The notes under the pieces are model-generated. The model saw only the letters and a program-made list of their open reading frames with translations, was not told the DNA's origin and made no database searches. The position numbers and the translations under genes were made by a program. 64,000 nucleotides of DNA from positions 4,849-68,848 of the forward strand of contig CAMYVO010000006.1 in assembly GCA_947302485.1 (NCBI GenBank), written 5' to 3'. This DNA comes from an uncultured Clostridium sp. Its GTDB lineage: Bacteria; Bacillota; Clostridia; TANB77; CAG-508. Positions 1,139 to 57,316 of this stretch are shown here, piece by piece (positions within the stretch are counted from its first letter, which is position 1; every line of letters begins with the position of its first letter).

Positions 1139-1167
1139 TTGCCATTAGGGACGGAGCTTTTTGGCAA
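1139..1167 (+). repeat. REP-like element (copy 2, forward)
   Basis: ttgccattagggacggagctttttggcaa. Exact reverse complement of 1211..1239. Confidence 0.85.
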
Positions 1168-1210: not shown

Positions 1211-1239
1211 TTGCCAAAAAGCTCCGTCCCTAATGGCAA
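1211..1239 (-). repeat. REP-like element (copy 3, reverse). Forms an inverted doublet with copy 2.
   Basis: ttgccaaaaagctccgtccctaatggcaa, 43-bp spacer to copy 2. Confidence 0.85.
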
Positions 1240-1250
1240 TTTTTTTCTTA

Positions 1251-2327
1251 CTACAGATTAATTTTTTCTCTTACTTGTTCTACATATTCATCATAAGTCT
1301 GAACTATTTCTAGTTTAGACTTTCCTTGTTTTATATTATTATCTCCTTGAACTTTAATATCAACTTCATATGTATCTTTTAATTTTTTTACATTTGCCCT
1401 CTTGTGTCCTATTACATTATTTACATCTACTGGATTAACTTTTATATTTACTTCTTTTACTTTTACATTTATTTTTTTAATTTTATCTACAATGCTATCA
1501 TACCATATACTATCTTCTACAAGTTGTCCAAAGGCTGGATGATATGGTCCTGCAATTACATCACTTTTATCTGAACCTGGTTCTGTAATAAGATCTGTAT
1601 TTTGAAGTCCAATCCTTATAACTTTAATTTTCTTTTTATTAAATAAATAAACAAGTTCTTTACATCTTTCAATAGCTTGATTTAAATTAATTGGCTCATA
1701 TTCACCTGATTCATATTCATTTGCAAGTTCTGTATTTTTAATTACTAATACTGGATAAATTCTTATCATTTTTGGTTTTAGTTTAATTAAATCTTTTGCA
1801 GTATTTAATTCATCTATTTTTGTACTGTCTGGAAGTCCAACCATTATTTGATGTCCTAAATTAAACCTATATCTACGAATTAATTTAGAAGCTTTTTTTA
1901 CATCTTCAAATGTATGTCCTCTTTTACATCTTTTTAATATGTAATCATTAGTAGATTGTACCCCTAATTCAATAGTTTTTACATTATATTTTTTTAGCAT
2001 TTTTAAATTATCTTTACTAATATAGTCTGGTCTAGTAGATATACGAATAGAGTCTATTTTCTTTTCTTTTATATATTCATTTGCAACTTTTAACAATTTT
2101 TCTTGTTCTTCTATTTCAATTCCTGTAAAACTTCCTCCAAAAAAAGCTATTTCCTTTCTATAATTATCCTCTTTAAAACTTTCTAAATATTCATCGATTG
2201 TTCTTCTTAAGTTTTCTTCTGTAATTATATTTTTTTCACCACTAATACTCTTTTGATTACAAAAAGTACAATCATTTGGACAGCCTAAATGTGGTACAAA
2301 TATTGGTATTACATACAATCCACTCAT
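1251..2327 (-). CDS. Radical SAM protein, ELP3-like (COG1243-type, no acetyltransferase domain)
   Basis: N-terminal CPNDCTFC (CxxxCxxC) cluster motif and TIM-barrel-like length. Often sits next to rnc in Clostridia. Confidence 0.7.
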   Translation of the reverse strand: MSGLYVIPIFVPHLGCPNDCTFCNQKSISGEKNIITEENLRRTIDEYLESFKEDNYRKEIAFFGGSFTGIEIEEQEKLLKVANEYIKEKKIDSIRISTRPDYISKDNLKMLKKYNVKTIELGVQSTNDYILKRCKRGHTFEDVKKASKLIRRYRFNLGHQIMVGLPDSTKIDELNTAKDLIKLKPKMIRIYPVLVIKNTELANEYESGEYEPINLNQAIERCKELVYLFNKKKIKVIRIGLQNTDLITEPGSDKSDVIAGPYHPAFGQLVEDSIWYDSIVDKIKKINVKVKEVNIKVNPVDVNNVIGHKRANVKKLKDTYEVDIKVQGDNNIKQGKSKLEIVQTYDEYVEQVREKINL

Positions 2328-49422: not shown

Positions 49423-49451
49423 TTGCCATTGGGGACGGAGCATTTTGGCAA
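49423..49451 (+). repeat. REP-like element (copy 9, forward)
   Basis: ttgccattggggacggagcattttggcaa. First of two tandem copies upstream of the RAYT-like gene. Confidence 0.85.
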
Positions 49452-49453
49452 AT

Positions 49454-49482
49454 TTGCCATTGGGGACGGAGCATTTTGGCAA
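49454..49482 (+). repeat. REP-like element (copy 10, forward)
   Basis: Identical to copy 9, 31-bp period. Confidence 0.85.
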
Positions 49483-49604
49483 ATTTGTAAAATGAAATTT
49501 TTTTTTTACATTTTACAAATTTCGACAAACAATTCTACAAAATATATTATATGATATTTTATATTTAATTCTTTTAATTTTTTTAATCTAAAGGAGGCAA
49601 TTTC

Positions 49605-50372
49605 ATGCCAAGAAATCCAAGAAAATTATTAAATACATCTTTTTATCACATAATGACACAGGGGATTAATAAATATTTTATATTTAACAATTCTACTGAT
49701 ATAAAATACTATATTAAAACTATGTACAAATTACTTAAACAACATAATATAGAAATTATTTCTTACTGTATAATGAATAATCATGCACATATTTTAATAA
49801 AATCTAATAATATTAAAGACTTAAGTAAATATATGCAAAGATTAAATACCATATATGGAATATACTATAATAAAAAATATGATAGGGTAGGATATGTGTT
49901 TCGTGATAGATATAAATCAGAAGGAATATATAGCCAAAGTCATTTATATAATTGCATAAATTATATTTATAATAATCCAGTAAAAGCAAATATCTGCAAA
50001 CATCCCAAAGATTATCCATATTCAAATTATAAAAAAGTAAAAAATTTTAAAAATGATGAATATTCTTTTATAGATACAGATGAGGATATTGAAATTATAA
50101 TTGATTATTTTATAAATAGCTTTTTAAAAAAGCATAATATTTCATTAGATTTATTAAAAAAGGATAATGATTTATTAAAAGAATTGGTTGTTAAATTAAG
50201 GCAAATATATAATATATCATATAGAACAATTTCTAAAAAAATTAATATAAGTAGAGAAACAATTAGAACAATATATAATAAACATAGTAATTTGCCAAAA
50301 TCCTCCGTCCCTAATGGCAAAAATGGCAAAAATGAAGCCACTGATTTAAGATTTAAATCAGTGGCTAGGTAG
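49605..50372 (+). CDS. Y1 HUH transposase of the IS200/IS605 TnpA family, REP-associated (RAYT-like), with C-terminal HTH extension
   Basis: HUH motif NNHAHILI and catalytic Tyr region YIYNNPVKA. HTH-like ISYRTISKKINISRETIRTIY. No tnpB partner. Flanked by inverted REP copies. The last ~27 codons run through REP copy 50292..50320 and a hairpin. Confidence 0.8.
   Translation: MPRNPRKLLNTSFYHIMTQGINKYFIFNNSTDIKYYIKTMYKLLKQHNIEIISYCIMNNHAHILIKSNNIKDLSKYMQRLNTIYGIYYNKKYDRVGYVFRDRYKSEGIYSQSHLYNCINYIYNNPVKANICKHPKDYPYSNYKKVKNFKNDEYSFIDTDEDIEIIIDYFINSFLKKHNISLDLLKKDNDLLKELVVKLRQIYNISYRTISKKINISRETIRTIYNKHSNLPKSSVPNGKNGKNEATDLRFKSVAR
50292..50320 (-). repeat. REP-like element (copy 11, reverse) inside the 3' end of the RAYT-like ORF
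   Basis: ttgccaaaatcctccgtccctaatggcaa. Confidence 0.8.
50336..50366. terminator. Perfect 14-bp hairpin between the convergent RAYT-like and Cys-rich ORFs
   Basis: agccactgatttaa gat ttaaatcagtggct. No clear U-tract, and it overlaps the last RAYT codons. Confidence 0.5.
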
Positions 50373-50374
50373 CA

Positions 50375-50695
50375 TTAGTGTTTGCAGTAATCCATATTGA
50401 TGCAAACAAGCTTTTCGTTATGGAGAAATATATAATCTCCACACAACTTGCATCGCACATATGGCCTAGTATTAGCAAACATTCTTATTTCTTCGGTATG
50501 GTAAAACATTTGATGTCCTGCGGAACATCTAGCTACCACCCCAACATTATGACAGCATATGATTTTTTCCTTTTTATCTTCTTCGTTAAAAAGAAATTCA
50601 TAATTTGTTCCACATGTTGACCGAATAATAGAATATTCACTTTCTACACCGCAAACAATGTTGCTATGGAATAGCTTACACACAGGCAGTGCCAT
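50375..50695 (-). CDS. Hypothetical Cys-rich small protein (possible zinc ribbon)
   Basis: Start moved to ATG 50695, behind a strong AAGGAGGG. 12 Cys including CKLCGD. Contains the only in-frame CGG in the window that does not need a frameshift (50621..50623). Confidence 0.4.
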   Translation of the reverse strand: MALPVCKLFHSNIVCGVESEYSIIRSTCGTNYEFLFNEEDKKEKIICCHNVGVVARCSAGHQMFYHTEEIRMFANTRPYVRCKLCGDYIFLHNEKLVCINMDYCKH

Positions 50696-50788
50696 TCCTT
50701 TTCCCTCCTTTACATTATGCTTATGCAAAAGATTTTCTTTATTATTTTATATTATTTATGTTAAATTGTCAATATAATAATAAAAAGA

Positions 50789-50817
50789 TTGCCAAAATGC
50801 TCCGTCCCTTTTGGCAA
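50789..50817 (-). repeat. REP-like element (copy 12, reverse)
   Basis: ttgccaaaatgctccgtcccttttggcaa. Lies between the gatB stop and the Cys-rich ORF start. Confidence 0.85.
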
Positions 50818-50826
50818 TCTTTTTAT

Positions 50827-52269
50827 TTATTTTGAAAGTTCGTCTTTGAACATTTGATTTAACATTTGAGGATTTGCTTTTCCTTTTGTTTCTTTCATTG
50901 CTTGTCCTACTAAAAAACCAAGTGCTTTTTCTTTTCCACCTTTATAATCACTTACAGATTGAGGATTTGCACAAATTACTTTTAAAACAACTTCTTTTAT
51001 TGCACCTTCATCAGAAATTTGTATCCATCCTTTTTCTTCTATTATTTTTGATGGGCTATGTGGATTTTCAAACAATTCATTTAATACCTTTTTACCTATT
51101 GTTCCATTTATAGTGTTTTTTTCAATTAATTGTATTAATTCTGCTAAATGTTCTTTGGTAAATGGTATCTCTTCTGGTTCCATCTCTTTTTCATTTAGTA
51201 CTTTTGCAATATCTGACATTATCCAGTTAGCAACTGCTTTTGGATTATTACATATATTAGTTGCTCCTTCAAAAAGATCAGATAAATATTTTGAACCTGT
51301 TAAAATATTTGCTTCTTTTTCAGTTAATTTATATTCCTTTAAATATCTCTGTTTTCTACTTTCTGGTAGTTCAGGTAGATTGTTTTTTATGTTTTCTATA
51401 TATTCTTCAGACAATCTAATAGCTACCAAATCTGGATCTGGAAAATATCTATAATCTTGTGCATCCTCTTTATCTCTCATTGAAAATGTTCTTCCAGAAA
51501 CATCATCCCAACGAAGAGTTTCTTGCTCAACTTTTCCTCCATTCTCTATAACATCTATTTGTCTTTCTATCTCATATTCTATTCCTCTTACTATAGAACG
51601 GAAAGAATTCATATTTTTCATTTCTGTTCTTGTTCCATATTCTGCCTGACCTTTTTTTCTAATAGAAACATTTACGTCAGCCCTTAACGATCCCTCTTGC
51701 ATTTTACAATCAGATACTTCAATATATTCAAGTATTGATTTTAATTTTCTTAAATAATCCTCAGCTTCTTTACTAGATCTGATATCTGGCTCAGATACTA
51801 TTTCAATTAGCGGAACTCCCGCTCTATTTAAATCTACTAAACTTCCTCTTCCGAATTCATCATGATTTAACTTTCCAGCATCTTCTTCAATATGAATACG
51901 ATTTAATCTTATTTTCTTTATATTACCTTCTTTATCTTCTATCTCTACATATCCTTTTTCACATAAAGGCATATCATATTGCGAAATTTGATATGCTTTA
52001 GGTAGATCTGGATAAAAGTAATTTTTTCTATCATTTTTACTATTTCTTGATATATTACAGTTTGTTGCAAGTCCTGCCTTTACAGCATACTCTACTACTC
52101 TTTCGTTAAGTACAGGAAGAGTTCCTGGCATAGCCATACATACTGGACAACAGTGTGTATTTGGTGTTCCTCCAAATTCTGTAGGACAAGAACAGAATAT
52201 TTTTGTTTTTGTTGAAAGTTCTGCATGTACTTCTAATCCAATTACCACTTCATAATTTTCTTTTGACAT
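50827..52269 (-). CDS. gatB: Asp-tRNA(Asn)/Glu-tRNA(Gln) amidotransferase subunit B
   Basis: Full-length GatB (YEVVIGLEVHAEL..., C-terminal GatB/YqeY domain). Confidence 0.96.
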   Translation of the reverse strand: MSKENYEVVIGLEVHAELSTKTKIFCSCPTEFGGTPNTHCCPVCMAMPGTLPVLNERVVEYAVKAGLATNCNISRNSKNDRKNYFYPDLPKAYQISQYDMPLCEKGYVEIEDKEGNIKKIRLNRIHIEEDAGKLNHDEFGRGSLVDLNRAGVPLIEIVSEPDIRSSKEAEDYLRKLKSILEYIEVSDCKMQEGSLRADVNVSIRKKGQAEYGTRTEMKNMNSFRSIVRGIEYEIERQIDVIENGGKVEQETLRWDDVSGRTFSMRDKEDAQDYRYFPDPDLVAIRLSEEYIENIKNNLPELPESRKQRYLKEYKLTEKEANILTGSKYLSDLFEGATNICNNPKAVANWIMSDIAKVLNEKEMEPEEIPFTKEHLAELIQLIEKNTINGTIGKKVLNELFENPHSPSKIIEEKGWIQISDEGAIKEVVLKVICANPQSVSDYKGGKEKALGFLVGQAMKETKGKANPQMLNQMFKDELSK

Positions 52270-54244: not shown

Positions 54245-54273
54245 TTGCCAAAGAGAACCGTCCCTAATGGCAA
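54245..54273 (-). repeat. REP-like element (copy 13, reverse)
   Basis: ttgccaaagagaaccgtccctaatggcaa. Lies between the CAP-protein stop and the gatC start. Confidence 0.85.
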
Positions 54274-54282
54274 TTTTCCATG

Positions 54283-55059
54283 TTATTTACCTATAAACAT
54301 CTGTACATATATCTTTCCGTATCTACTACTGTTTACAACTCCTATTCCAGTATAATTAAATGAACTATTTAATATATTTGCTCTATGCCCTTCTGAATTC
54401 ATCCATGCCTCTACTGCTTTTGTATTACTGGAATTTCCTGCTAAATTTTCTCCTGCAGATTTATAGCTAATTCCATATTTTTTTAGCATATCAAACGGGC
54501 TACCAAATGTTGGTGAATTATGTGCAAAATAATTATTGTTTACCATATCCTTTGCTTTATCACGTGCAACTACCATAACCTCATTATCTATAGCTAGAGC
54601 CTTTAATCCATTTGCTATTCTTTTTTCATTAATTAAATTAAATATTTCTAGCTCATCTTGTGTTAAATTTGATCCTGAAGCTACATTATTAGCTTTACCA
54701 GAGCTTTCTGTATTACCTATTGATGGATAAATTGGCTTAATATAACTTGAACTAACAGCTCCAATATAGTCATTATCTGTTTGTATTACATACCAATTTC
54801 CTATTTTAGCAAACACTCGAATGTATTGATTTTTATACACTTGTGTTATTACTTTATATGAAGTACCTGGTCCTTCTCTGACATTTAATGTAGATGCTGT
54901 TACAAGTCCAGTTGAAAAATCAACTTTCTGATAATGTTGCATTGCATAAGAACTACTAAATATATTAAATGAAATAACTATTCCTAATAAAATGGAGATC
55001 ATAAGTATTTTAACTTTTGAAATTTTAAACTTTGGTAATTTCAATACCTTTATATACAT
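54283..55059 (-). CDS. Membrane-anchored SH3b plus CAP/SCP (YkwD-like) domain protein
   Basis: N-terminal TM helix, SH3b-like LNVREGPGTSYKVI...GNWYVIQ and a C-terminal CAP domain (NEKR...FAHNSP...GENLA...W..S.GHRANIL). Confidence 0.75.
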   Translation of the reverse strand: MYIKVLKLPKFKISKVKILMISILLGIVISFNIFSSSYAMQHYQKVDFSTGLVTASTLNVREGPGTSYKVITQVYKNQYIRVFAKIGNWYVIQTDNDYIGAVSSSYIKPIYPSIGNTESSGKANNVASGSNLTQDELEIFNLINEKRIANGLKALAIDNEVMVVARDKAKDMVNNNYFAHNSPTFGSPFDMLKKYGISYKSAGENLAGNSSNTKAVEAWMNSEGHRANILNSSFNYTGIGVVNSSRYGKIYVQMFIGK

Positions 55060-55120: not shown

Positions 55121-55550
55121 TTATATCTTTTCTACTTTTTGGAATCTAATTTCATTTCTATCATTCTGTTTTTCAAATACTTCTAATATTTCATTTTTAG
55201 TTGTTGAAATCACATCATCTATTACATCTATTGTCTTTCCAAATTGATCTAAAATTCCGTTTAAAATGAAAATCTACTTTTTCATCTAGCTTATTGATTC
55301 TTTCATCTAACTCATTATATTTCGTATCTATTTTTTCATCTAACTCATTATATTTCCTATCTATTTTCTCATCTAACTCATTAAATTTCCTATCTATTTT
55401 CTCATCTAATTCATTAAATTTCCTATCTATTTTCTCATCTAATTCTCGTACTTTTGTATCTAACTTTTTGTCTAAATTATCTACCTTTTCAGATAATTTT
55501 CCAAAATTATTATTCAGCTTAACTAATTCTTCTAATATTATTTTTTCCAT
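55121..55550 (-). CDS. Hypothetical coiled-coil protein with 11-aa tandem repeats, in two frames joined at an in-frame CGG (55259)
   Basis: ORF 55215..55550 reads ...TTT AAA C GGA ATT. Omitting the C keeps the frame open for 45 more codons (GILDQFGKTIDVIDDV...RFQKVEKI*) to TAA 55121. Confidence 0.45.
55302..55433. repeat. 33-bp tandem repeat, four good copies (degenerate copies extend to 55269..55466)
   Basis: The unit ttcatctaactcattatatttcgtatctatttt repeats head to tail. Encodes NELDEKIDRKF repeats on the minus strand. Confidence 0.85.
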
Positions 55551-55920: not shown

Positions 55921-55949
55921 TTGCCAAAAAGAACCGTCCCTAATGGCAA
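55921..55949 (-). repeat. REP-like element (copy 14, reverse)
   Basis: ttgccaaaaagaaccgtccctaatggcaa, 2 nt after the stop of the 454-aa ORF. Confidence 0.85.
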
Positions 55950-55951
55950 CA

Positions 55952-57316
55952 CTATTCAAGATTGAATGACATTACAAAGTCTGTTCCTTCTTTTAATTTC
56001 ATAATTATTGTAAGTTTTTTAGTTTTTGAATCTTTTTGTGTTTTATCAGAAAGTGTAAGTTCAAATATATATGTATCACCTTCATTTGAAAACTTATCAT
56101 ATGTTACATTATTATATTCAAAAAAGTTTGCTTTTATATATTGTTTATATGAATCTTCCGTCTGAAAATATTTATTTTTAAATTCATCATATAGTAAAGC
56201 ATATGAATTTTTATAATCTTTTGTGTTTATCATTTTTATAAATTTATCAATATTAAATTGAACTTTTTTTGTTATATCTGCATTATTATATTGCTGTAAA
56301 AATTTTTCTGAATCAATAGTATATGTATCTAGTTGTACAGTATAATCTACTAATCCATTATTACAGATAATTAAATAATAATTATTACTATCATCCATTA
56401 ATAAATATGTTTTTTTATTATTTATAGTATCAATACCATATTGTGATAATTTAGAGTTTTTTAATTTCTCTTTTATTTCAGAAACATATTCTTCAAAAGT
56501 TGAATAATCTGGAAATCTTTTTTTTCTATATTCAGCATCTAATTTATTATACTCTTCTTTAAAATCATATAATAAATTATTTTTTTGAATATTGAAATAC
56601 TCTTTAGCCATTTGTTCATCTGTAACATTTCCTAAAATAACTTTATTATACATGTTTGCTTCTATATTTGTTTTAGATATGTTAATATCTTTTTTATTTA
56701 TATTGTAGTTATTTTCTTCAATATAATCAGACAAAAAGACTGAACAAGCATTAGTACTACTATCATATTTTATTAATAAATTAAATTTATTATCCTTTAT
56801 TTTAGAAAAAACTAAAAATAATGTAATATTTTCAGTATACTGATATTCATACATTTCGTTTAGTATTACATTGTAAATTACATCTGGTCTTGTATAATCT
56901 CCTTGAATCATATATTTTTTTGACTCATTTGTATAAAAATCTTCATCAATCTTTTTATTTTCTTTATATTGTTCATCAATAAGACTATTTAAAGATTTTA
57001 GTGCCTCTTCTTTTCTTGTCTTAATTGCTTCATTTCGACTAACTTTTAATGTATCATTATTTATATAGTTATCTCCATTTAGGTTTTTAATATCTTCTAT
57101 ATATCTATCAATAATATTTTTTGCTATAAAATAATTATTTTCATTTTCTATATTCCTAAATAATCCCATATTGATTTGATTATTTGATTCTTCAATATTT
57201 GTTTTTTTGAAACTTCCTTTTTTGCTTAAAAACATTAATATCATTGCTAATATTATTATAATTATTACTAAAAAGATTATCATATATTTTATATACTTTT
57301 TCATAATAAACCTCAT
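55952..57316 (-). CDS. Hypothetical membrane-anchored extracytoplasmic protein
   Basis: 454 aa with N-terminal TM helix (MIIFLVIIIIILAMILMFL). Asn/Lys/Tyr-rich ectodomain, with a C-terminal part of NTF2-like flavour (weak). Last gene of the operon starting beyond 64000. Confidence 0.45.
   Translation of the reverse strand: MRFIMKKYIKYMIIFLVIIIIILAMILMFLSKKGSFKKTNIEESNNQINMGLFRNIENENNYFIAKNIIDRYIEDIKNLNGDNYINNDTLKVSRNEAIKTRKEEALKSLNSLIDEQYKENKKIDEDFYTNESKKYMIQGDYTRPDVIYNVILNEMYEYQYTENITLFLVFSKIKDNKFNLLIKYDSSTNACSVFLSDYIEENNYNINKKDINISKTNIEANMYNKVILGNVTDEQMAKEYFNIQKNNLLYDFKEEYNKLDAEYRKKRFPDYSTFEEYVSEIKEKLKNSKLSQYGIDTINNKKTYLLMDDSNNYYLIICNNGLVDYTVQLDTYTIDSEKFLQQYNNADITKKVQFNIDKFIKMINTKDYKNSYALLYDEFKNKYFQTEDSYKQYIKANFFEYNNVTYDKFSNEGDTYIFELTLSDKTQKDSKTKKLTIIMKLKEGTDFVMSFNLE

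Follow-up and report, generated by a model that had tools for sequence, protein, structure and literature searches.

Canonical REPtrons pair a tyrosine transposase gene with short repetitive extragenic palindromes (REPs), as do E. coli TnpA_REP/yafM with its REP/BIME sequences and the group 3 REP-associated tyrosine transposases (RAYTs) of Pseudomonas and Stenotrophomonas with their REPINs (PMC2817692, PMC3333891, PMC3479197, PMC8266576, PMC3116915), and nearly all of the REP/RAYT work that we found concerns Proteobacteria. Among the Y1 HUH proteins in general, Y-x3-NP is the signature of class 2 (TnpA_REP-like) and Y-x3-Q that of IS200 (PMC6006769). Di Nocera et al. 2013 (PMC3733652) describe a further type, the TIRYT gene with its TIRtron, as a RAYT-like gene with fixed-distance inverted repeats that share GGGGWSAS, are sometimes self-complementary and moderately abundant, and form dimers or clusters. 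TIRYTs probably correspond to subclass 2.1 (2.1.2) of the class-2 TnpA_Y1 proteins, whose genes are reported to have no REP-like secondary structures adjacent to them (Quentin et al. 2018, PMC6006769), and they likely match the Group 1 RAYTs, which occur in Clostridia with flanking 16-mers at only ~12 copies (Bertels et al. 2017, PMC5581495). Here we report on a 64-kb stretch of DNA from an uncultured Clostridium sp. (contig CAMYVO010000006.1; the whole stretch is referred to as the window), in which a single Y1 transposase gene lies between inverted copies of a short hairpin repeat. We estimate a probability of about 75% that gene and repeat form a REPtron-type unit, that is, a chromosomal, essentially single-copy class-2 Y1 HUH nuclease with a C-terminal helix-turn-helix (HTH) domain together with its cognate short, non-autonomous hairpins. 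A RAYT/REP-like reading had been put forward in a first-pass annotation of this DNA, and it is supported by the class of the protein, the bracketing of its gene, the dispersal of the repeat and a behaviour unlike that of an insertion sequence (IS).

The 255-aa open reading frame (ORF) of the window is a class-2 Y1 HUH enzyme of the RAYT type. Both motifs for which it had been singled out are present, NNHAHILI for HUH and YIYNNPVKA for the tyrosine, and the protein matched Pfam Y1_Tnp with an E-value of 1.2e-11. It scored 70.9 bits with NF047646, the model for REP-associated tyrosine transposases, which is under the 80-bit equivalog cut-off of that model, and 19.4 bits with the IS200/IS605 model; all 40 aligned homologues likewise matched NF047646, with a best E-value of 3e-24 as compared with 2e-6 for the IS200 model. 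Moreover, H60, H62, Y120, N124 and P125 are invariant in the 40 homologues, and at the level of sequence this invariance of the HUH histidines and of Tyr-x3-NP argues for retained catalysis. In a profile search of PDB sequences the sole match was 4ER8, E. coli TnpA_REP, and a Foldseek search with the AlphaFold2 model of the protein (mean pLDDT, the predicted local distance difference test, 85) again returned 4ER8, bound to a REP hairpin, as the best match, followed by the IS200, ISDra2 and IS608 transposases. Thus, an intact HUH/Tyr active site sits on a TnpA_REP-like fold, and the assignment to the RAYT type follows from the better fit of the RAYT model, the presence of Y-x3-NP and the top rank of 4ER8 by both sequence and fold. 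The core occupies residues 1-145, and it is followed at about residues 159-228 by a helical domain, confidently predicted in the AlphaFold2 model and probably an HTH. The HTH matches of this region in Pfam were all sub-threshold (HTH_11 in 18, Sigma70_r4 in 14, HTH_23 in 5 and HTH_28 in 1 of the 40 homologues), and Bac_DnaA_C gave no Pfam match at the C-terminus in any of them. Homologues stop at ~226 aa, and because the ORF of the window continues across the repeat copy at 50292 and next across a terminator-like hairpin, its last ~27 residues (~229-255) are repeat-encoded and incidental. Neither a TnpB gene nor a second Y1 copy was found in the window or in the gene calls of a sister strain (contig L199, 93-97% identical to the window), so that the gene is as solitary as it had been taken to be.

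The repeat is a 29-mer, TTGCCATTGGGGACGGAGCATTTTGGCAA, whose ends are palindromic (TTGCCA / TGGCAA) and whose asymmetric core, GGGACGG(AG/TT)C, sets its orientation. Around the Y1 gene there are two exact forward copies and two reverse copies, with 2 mismatches in the copy at 50292 and 3 in that at 50789, as had been annotated before; dinucleotide-preserving shuffles expect 0.00 matches to the 29-mer. The ten further copies or variants that the first-pass annotation placed elsewhere in the window were not recovered. Only four lie away from the Y1 gene, which brings the total to 8 rather than 14, and this number was obtained by each of three methods: a fuzzy match with up to 7 edits, a search for GGGACG-containing hairpins, of which shuffles gave 0.17 on average, and an unfiltered run of a covariance model for which 49 species had supplied the hairpins. 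With the covariance model the eight copies scored 31-38 bits (36.9 bits for the first forward copy) and the next best hit 13 bits or less; fuzzy, relaxed-loop and covariance searches added no further copies or variants, and relaxed motifs did not exceed their shuffle counts. All eight copies lie outside the ORFs that are supported by homologues, and four of them are located 2-11 nt after the stop codons of minus-strand genes (1251..2327, gatB at 50827..52269, 54283..55059 and 55952..57316). The repeat is preceded by A-rich and followed by T-rich sequence, and the inverted doublet at 1139-1239 folds as a 39-bp hairpin of -45 kcal/mol. No GTAG tetranucleotide was found at the hairpin 5' foot in the repeat flanks; the conserved motif, GGGACG, is inside the loop. 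In Rfam no family matched the hairpins, the sole hits of the window being two tRNAs.

Two other structures of the window may be related to the repeat. At 25141-25183 and 25275-25317, in the intergenic gap before ORF 25313..26560, two arms, 84% complementary, converge as an inverted repeat around a 91-nt spacer, which contains its own palindrome; the arm CTACCAATTGAGACG is loosely like TTGCCATTGGGGACG, the structure scores only 11 bits with the covariance model, and it could represent the decayed doublet of some related family. Two related hairpins at 15379-15426 and 19293-19340 have the form CTGGAAAA-GAGAAC...-TTTTCCA(G) without GGGACG, and the 3' half of their loop, read on the reverse strand (GTTCTCTTT), agrees with the loop variant GGTTCTCTT that the copy at 54245 carries; these two could be relatives, either distant or degenerate.

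The arrangement recurs far beyond this one locus. A one-genome-per-species scan returned at least 534 loci with relatives of the Y1 gene, and the best 80, which we examined, are all from metagenome-assembled genomes of gut or rumen Clostridia, such as Clostridium sp. CAG:492 and CAG:452. The Y1 gene stands in a converging bracket with conserved distances in about 60 of these 80 species, a forward hairpin lying ~100-200 nt upstream of the start codon and a reverse hairpin at or over the stop codon; the bracketing by inverted copies that had been noticed in the window recurs in them, with stems that covary. The stems differ by lineage (TTGCCA/TGGCAA, TGTCAA/TTGACA, ATGATTTT/AAAATCAT, TGAACTTTA/TAAAGTTCA or GTCCCCA/TGGGGAC); GGGACG is retained in the 5' part of the loop, where some lineages have GGGTCGG, GGGCCGG or GGTTCCGGG instead. 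In an alignment of 49 distinct hairpins, picked for stems of at least 6 bp, compensatory changes were seen at 8 of 8 stem pairs (103 cells), and the covariation score was reached by none of 500 shuffles, slid controls being far lower. Genomes with two paralogues carry two distinct hairpin types. In one such genome (L108, CANONT010000010.1, 4440-4560) the gap upstream of the adhE promoter, whose counterpart in the window holds the Y1 gene and its bracket, is occupied by two converging hairpins that form a doublet and belong to a second family (stem ATGATTTT, loop GGGGACGGAGGAA), and a TTGCCA-type singlet follows the adhE stop codon. Two representatives of different species, L148 (CAWVJG01) and L150 (CAJFLB01), have 100% identical Y1 proteins and identical flanking hairpins, which could reflect recent transfer or assembly redundancy.

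The hairpins are also dispersed away from the Y1 genes. Dispersal was sampled in 30 species-level assemblies, in at least 118 chunks none of which exceeds 8 kb, and the statistics of copy placement refer to 257 hairpin copies from these related-genome chunks pooled with the window. Among the matches listed, which cover the 30 assemblies in all, three assemblies have at least 66, at least 41 and at least 24 copies. Of the 257 copies, 82% fall in the 15% of the DNA that no (long) ORF covers, and where a co-oriented gene lies upstream, its stop codon is a median of 7 nt away; the intergenic enrichment expected of a REP-like repeat was thus found in the related genomes. The copies occur as singlets, tandem arrays and converging doublets, and close pairs were converging in 57 cases and diverging in 1. 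Singlets show a modest bias to the G-rich strand (65 vs 38, p=0.01), which we do not take as mechanistic evidence because it is confounded with gene orientation. A strain comparison, which had been suggested for the repeat copies, revealed two sites at which the sister strain differs from the window in the number and sequence of its copies. A single unit with the loop GGTTCT stands at 55921 in the window, as against two tandem units with the loop GGAGCA in the sister strain, and the few bases just before the unit differ too. The other site is upstream of the Y1 gene, where the sister strain carries a partial unit of 14 nt in addition.

How does this locus compare with the described systems? 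The first-pass annotation regarded it as the arrangement established for REPs and RAYTs, which is true of the inverted bracket and of the dispersed palindromic repeat and does not extend to the GTAG tag, which is absent, or to the probable extra HTH domain. With canonical REPtrons it shares the class-2 Y1 HUH fold with Y-x3-NP, a single-copy chromosomal gene between inverted copies of its own repeat, and a short palindromic extragenic repeat that lies mostly downstream of genes and occurs as singlets, tandem clusters (BIME-like) and inverted doublets (REPIN-like); as in those systems, each paralogue has its own repeat type and inheritance is vertical. In contrast to them, there is no GTAG at the 5' foot, a defining feature of canonical REPs; the asymmetric motif that is conserved resides in the loop, which is large (11-17 nt), and the stems are not GC-rich but short, with an AT extension. 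The protein is enlarged by a probable HTH domain of ~80 aa, and the host is a Gram-positive anaerobe of 27.6% GC with an apparently small genome. The TnpA proteins of the IS200/IS605 family (IS608, ISDra2) have the HUH/Y1 fold in common with our protein and would have in common with it the recognition of a subterminal hairpin on single-stranded DNA; they differ in Y-x3-Q for Y-x3-NP (the IS200 model gives 19 bits here) and in direct rather than inverted ends, and here neither TnpB nor multicopy behaviour is seen.

Since GTAG is absent and an HTH domain is probably added, the closest described type is the TIRYT/‘TIRtron’ of Di Nocera et al. 2013 (PMC3733652) rather than the canonical group 2/3 RAYTs, and TIRYT or the HTH-bearing subclass 2.1 is, by published description, the closest fit for the window protein among the described types. 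The likeness includes a RAYT-like Y1 protein that is longer than the canonical ones and probably ends in an HTH (of which the matches in the window protein are sub-threshold, the C-terminal extensions of TIRYT/subclass 2.1 being of the Bac_DnaA_C, HTH_23 or HTH_28 type), inverted repeats at a roughly fixed distance that at times overlap the 3' end of the gene, repeats that can be partly self-complementary, moderately abundant and grouped in dimers or clusters, and few gene copies per genome. Against the consensus GGGGWSAS the repeat here has GGGGACGG (GGGGTCGG in some lineages), a match at 7 of 8 positions with G for A at position 7. A difference lies in the hosts, for the examples published in the main text of PMC3733652 are Proteobacteria and Acidobacteria, and ‘Firmicutes’ and ‘Clostridium’ do not occur in that main text. 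Subclass 2.1 as described differs further, in that the flanking repeat here is a short hairpin with covarying stems, dispersed at REP-like density.

By analogy with the biochemistry of TnpA_REP and of IS608/ISDra2 TnpA (PMC3333891, PMC3479197, PMC8266576), the enzyme would bind the folded hairpin on transiently single-stranded DNA and would read the asymmetric GGGACGG loop instead of a 5' GTAG tag, by which the orientation would be defined. Cutting and rejoining of one strand beside the hairpin would then add, remove or replace units of 31 nt. The HTH domain could make a second DNA contact, either with the palindromic arms in duplex DNA or with an operator over the gene's own -10 box, and it may act as an autorepressor, because many homologues have a palindrome over their -10 box. 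Many copies may double as transcription terminators or as 3' stabilisers of mRNA, a role that would explain why copies are kept a few nucleotides after stop codons.

Several observations on the gene bear on whether it is a resident of the chromosome or the body of an autonomous IS of the IS200/IS605 family, in which hairpin, gene and hairpin would move as a whole and the dispersed hairpins would be solo ends or derivatives resembling miniature inverted-repeat transposable elements. We regard the latter as unlikely. The end hairpins are inverted, whereas the ends of IS200/IS605 elements lie on one strand, and the protein fits the class-2/RAYT model and not the IS200 model. The window has one copy of the gene, and no genome sampled has identical multiple copies, same-genome paralogues being 46-61% identical except for one pair at 92%, which an IS would explain. 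Synteny on both sides is kept in three lineages of 4-9 species each down to a protein identity of 46-55%, and the family is nearly absent from mobile DNA, with 1 partial match in viral contigs and 16 weak matches, to the N-terminal domain only, in 72,556 plasmids. Hence the gene does not behave as the ordinary multicopy IS200 that had been named as the outcome contradicting a REP/RAYT-like reading. Other findings count against residence and in favour of an IS. The closest homologues, at ~60% identity, are not syntenic with the window and little with each other, and no homologue of another species shows synteny with adhE or gatB; the GC content of the Y1 gene (49605-50291) is ~20%, that is 10 points under its flanks at ~30% in a window of 27.6%; and the divergence between the window and L199 drops from ~6-7% to ~0.2% exactly at the upstream repeat (49420). 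This last tract spans the Y1 gene, an orphan ORF and the 3' third of gatB, to ~51400, and resembles the product of a recent recombination event that has one of its boundaries at the repeats. As evidence for a repeat-bounded mobile unit it was rejected, since it passes the outer repeat and its right edge lies inside gatB. Taken together, the non-syntenic closest homologues, the low GC and the low-divergence tract indicate that the Y1 gene relocates or is exchanged over long times, as Group 1 RAYTs do according to Bertels et al. 2017 (PMC5581495), where this group, present in Clostridia, is the most IS-like one apart from the IS200-derived Group 6.

A different objection concerns the hairpins, which might be host elements, terminators or binding sites in duplex DNA, spread by recombination or slippage, with the Y1-HTH protein mainly a regulator or structural binder and not a mover. 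In favour of this, copies follow stop codons at a median distance of 7 nt and often have stems lengthened by runs of A and T, the protein probably has an HTH, and the -10 box of many homologues is covered by a long palindrome. The weakness of the bare 29-mer as single-stranded DNA (6 bp, a 17-nt loop, -3.2 kcal/mol, z=-0.8) points the same way and tells against a REPtron, for it makes the stability of the hairpin depend on the A/T flanks. So does the fact that arms read as an inverted repeat in duplex DNA by a dimeric HTH would covary just as well, and the covariation alignment was in any case selected by stem length. In addition, the strain differences could be due to slippage or gene conversion without the enzyme; that the hairpin is cleaved, and at which site, we infer only by analogy; and stem type tracks protein divergence poorly, as the proteins of L080 and L035 are only 40-42% identical to the window protein and yet have the same TTGCCA hairpin. 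A simple co-divergence of stem and protein was accordingly rejected, because 40%-identical proteins share TTGCCA and 60%-identical ones use TGTCAA; this independence suggests, on comparison of the sequences, that the loop motif and the shape of the hairpin are what is recognised. We nevertheless hold the host-element explanation to be improbable, slightly more so than that of an autonomous IS. The invariant HUH histidines and Tyr-x3-NP argue for catalysis, identical 29-mers with a conserved asymmetric loop are not expected from selection for termination alone, and simple slippage explains poorly that a copy was replaced by copies with a different loop at one site. As to the bracket itself, intergenic copies are frequent enough for some genes to be flanked on both sides by chance, but a coincidence is practically refuted by the same converging bracket at the same distances in ~60 of 80 species with species-specific stems. 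A REPtron-type unit thus remains our preferred explanation.

We found no paper on this hairpin family, nor on any such system in Bacillota, and the system is arguably a variant, as well as a new member, of the REP/RAYT-like systems (closest to the TIRtron) in a phylum for which we found none described. A more specific proposal, which we make tentatively and without holding it to be the likelier outcome, is that these hairpins form a distinct, loop-tagged class of REPs, in which GGGACGG in a large loop replaces GTAG as the signal for orientation and recognition, and which is mobilised by a vertically inherited, HTH-fused Y1 nuclease in small-genome gut Clostridia and co-opted for termination after stop codons. 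If so, the long-term type of partnership known for REPINs and RAYTs would extend to Gram-positive bacteria, and the enzymes of subclass 2.1/TIRYT, reported without REP-like partners, would have them after all. The role of this large HTH-bearing branch of class-2 Y1 proteins is a question that the lineage opens to study, as it offers a comparative system of hundreds of species with a conserved loop motif, freely covarying stems, fixed bracket geometry and turnover at the level of strains. The same features supply substrates for binding and cleavage and a route to ask how strand and cleavage site are chosen without a GTAG guide. For annotation, it matters that such hairpins follow stop codons at a median distance of 7 nt in many gut Clostridia assemblies and that gene callers extend ORFs through them, as in the 27-residue tail of the window protein. 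The positions of all features are collected in Table 1.

Table 1. Positions of the Y1 gene, the hairpin copies and the neighbouring features in the window
Feature	Position	Strand	Remarks
Left unit of converging (REPIN-like) inverted doublet	1139..1167	+	
Right unit of the same doublet	1211..1239	-	11 nt past stop codon of ORF 1251..2327
Hairpin, forward copy 1	49423..49451	+	TTGCCA-N17-TGGCAA, loop motif GGGGACGGAG
Hairpin, forward copy 2	49454..49482	+	exact tandem copy, 2-nt linker; start 151 nt upstream of ATG
Separate palindrome	49483..49520	.	12-bp stem, ATTTGTAAAATG-N14-CATTTTACAAAT; between tandem repeats and promoter
Promoter-like site	49522..49550	+	TCGACA-17-TATTAT; TTTCGACAAA box kept upstream of homologues in many species
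Class-2 Y1 HUH nuclease (RAYT/TIRYT-like), 255 aa	49605..50372	+	H60, H62, Y120-x3-NP
Hairpin, reverse copy closing the bracket	50292..50320	-	placed where homologues have their stop codon
Terminator-like hairpin	50336..50366	.	14-bp stem; common to the converging Y1 gene and Cys-rich ORF
Cys-rich orphan ORF	50375..50728	-	117 aa listed, 106 aa from MALPVC...; own promoter 50772..50744
Hairpin, outer reverse copy	50789..50817	-	9 nt past gatB stop codon; likely gatB terminator
Singlet, loop variant GGGACGGTTC	54245..54273	-	9 nt past stop of ORF 54283..55059, then T run
Singlet, loop variant GGGACGGTTC	55921..55949	-	2 nt past stop of ORF 55952..57316

Upstream of the Y1 gene, the first forward copy is 3 nt from the -35 box of a divergent adhE promoter, and the separate palindrome that follows the tandem copies, which the sister strain has in identical form, may serve either as an operator or as a terminator with an insulating role. 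Most homologues (L120-L161, e.g. L144, L129, L134 and L148) have the TTTCGACAAA box followed by TATGATATAAT at ~50-85 nt upstream of the ATG, and in many of them the -10 region is inside a long perfect palindrome, ATATGATATAA...TTATATCATAT, with a stem of 11-23 bp. This palindrome, which is degenerate in the window (49522-49590), is by its sequence a candidate operator for the protein's own HTH.

Between the closing and the outer reverse copies lies a Cys-rich ORF, which the first-pass annotation considered as possible cargo or an accessory gene of the unit. We rejected this, as the ORF is an orphan with its own promoter (TTGACA-17-TAAAAT) and terminator: it matched no Pfam or NCBIfam family, had only itself as a match in 5.8 billion proteins, was absent from all 198 other loci compared, and stood beside none of the 80 Y1 homologues. 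The outer copy at 50789 is better taken as the post-stop hairpin of gatB; together with its flanks it folds into a 19-bp stem (-15 kcal/mol), behind which comes a T run. In another species, L038 (CATGLK010000002.1, 1170-1800), three hairpins are found at this same place with no Y1 gene nearby. There they form the first part of a BIME-like cluster, in which three tandem forward hairpins with different stems directly after gatB are followed by a membrane-like 83-aa ORF and then by three reverse hairpins.

Further along the window, five 33-nt tandem repeats at 55259-55480 within ORF 55215..55550 (minus strand, 111 aa) encode an 11-residue protein repeat.

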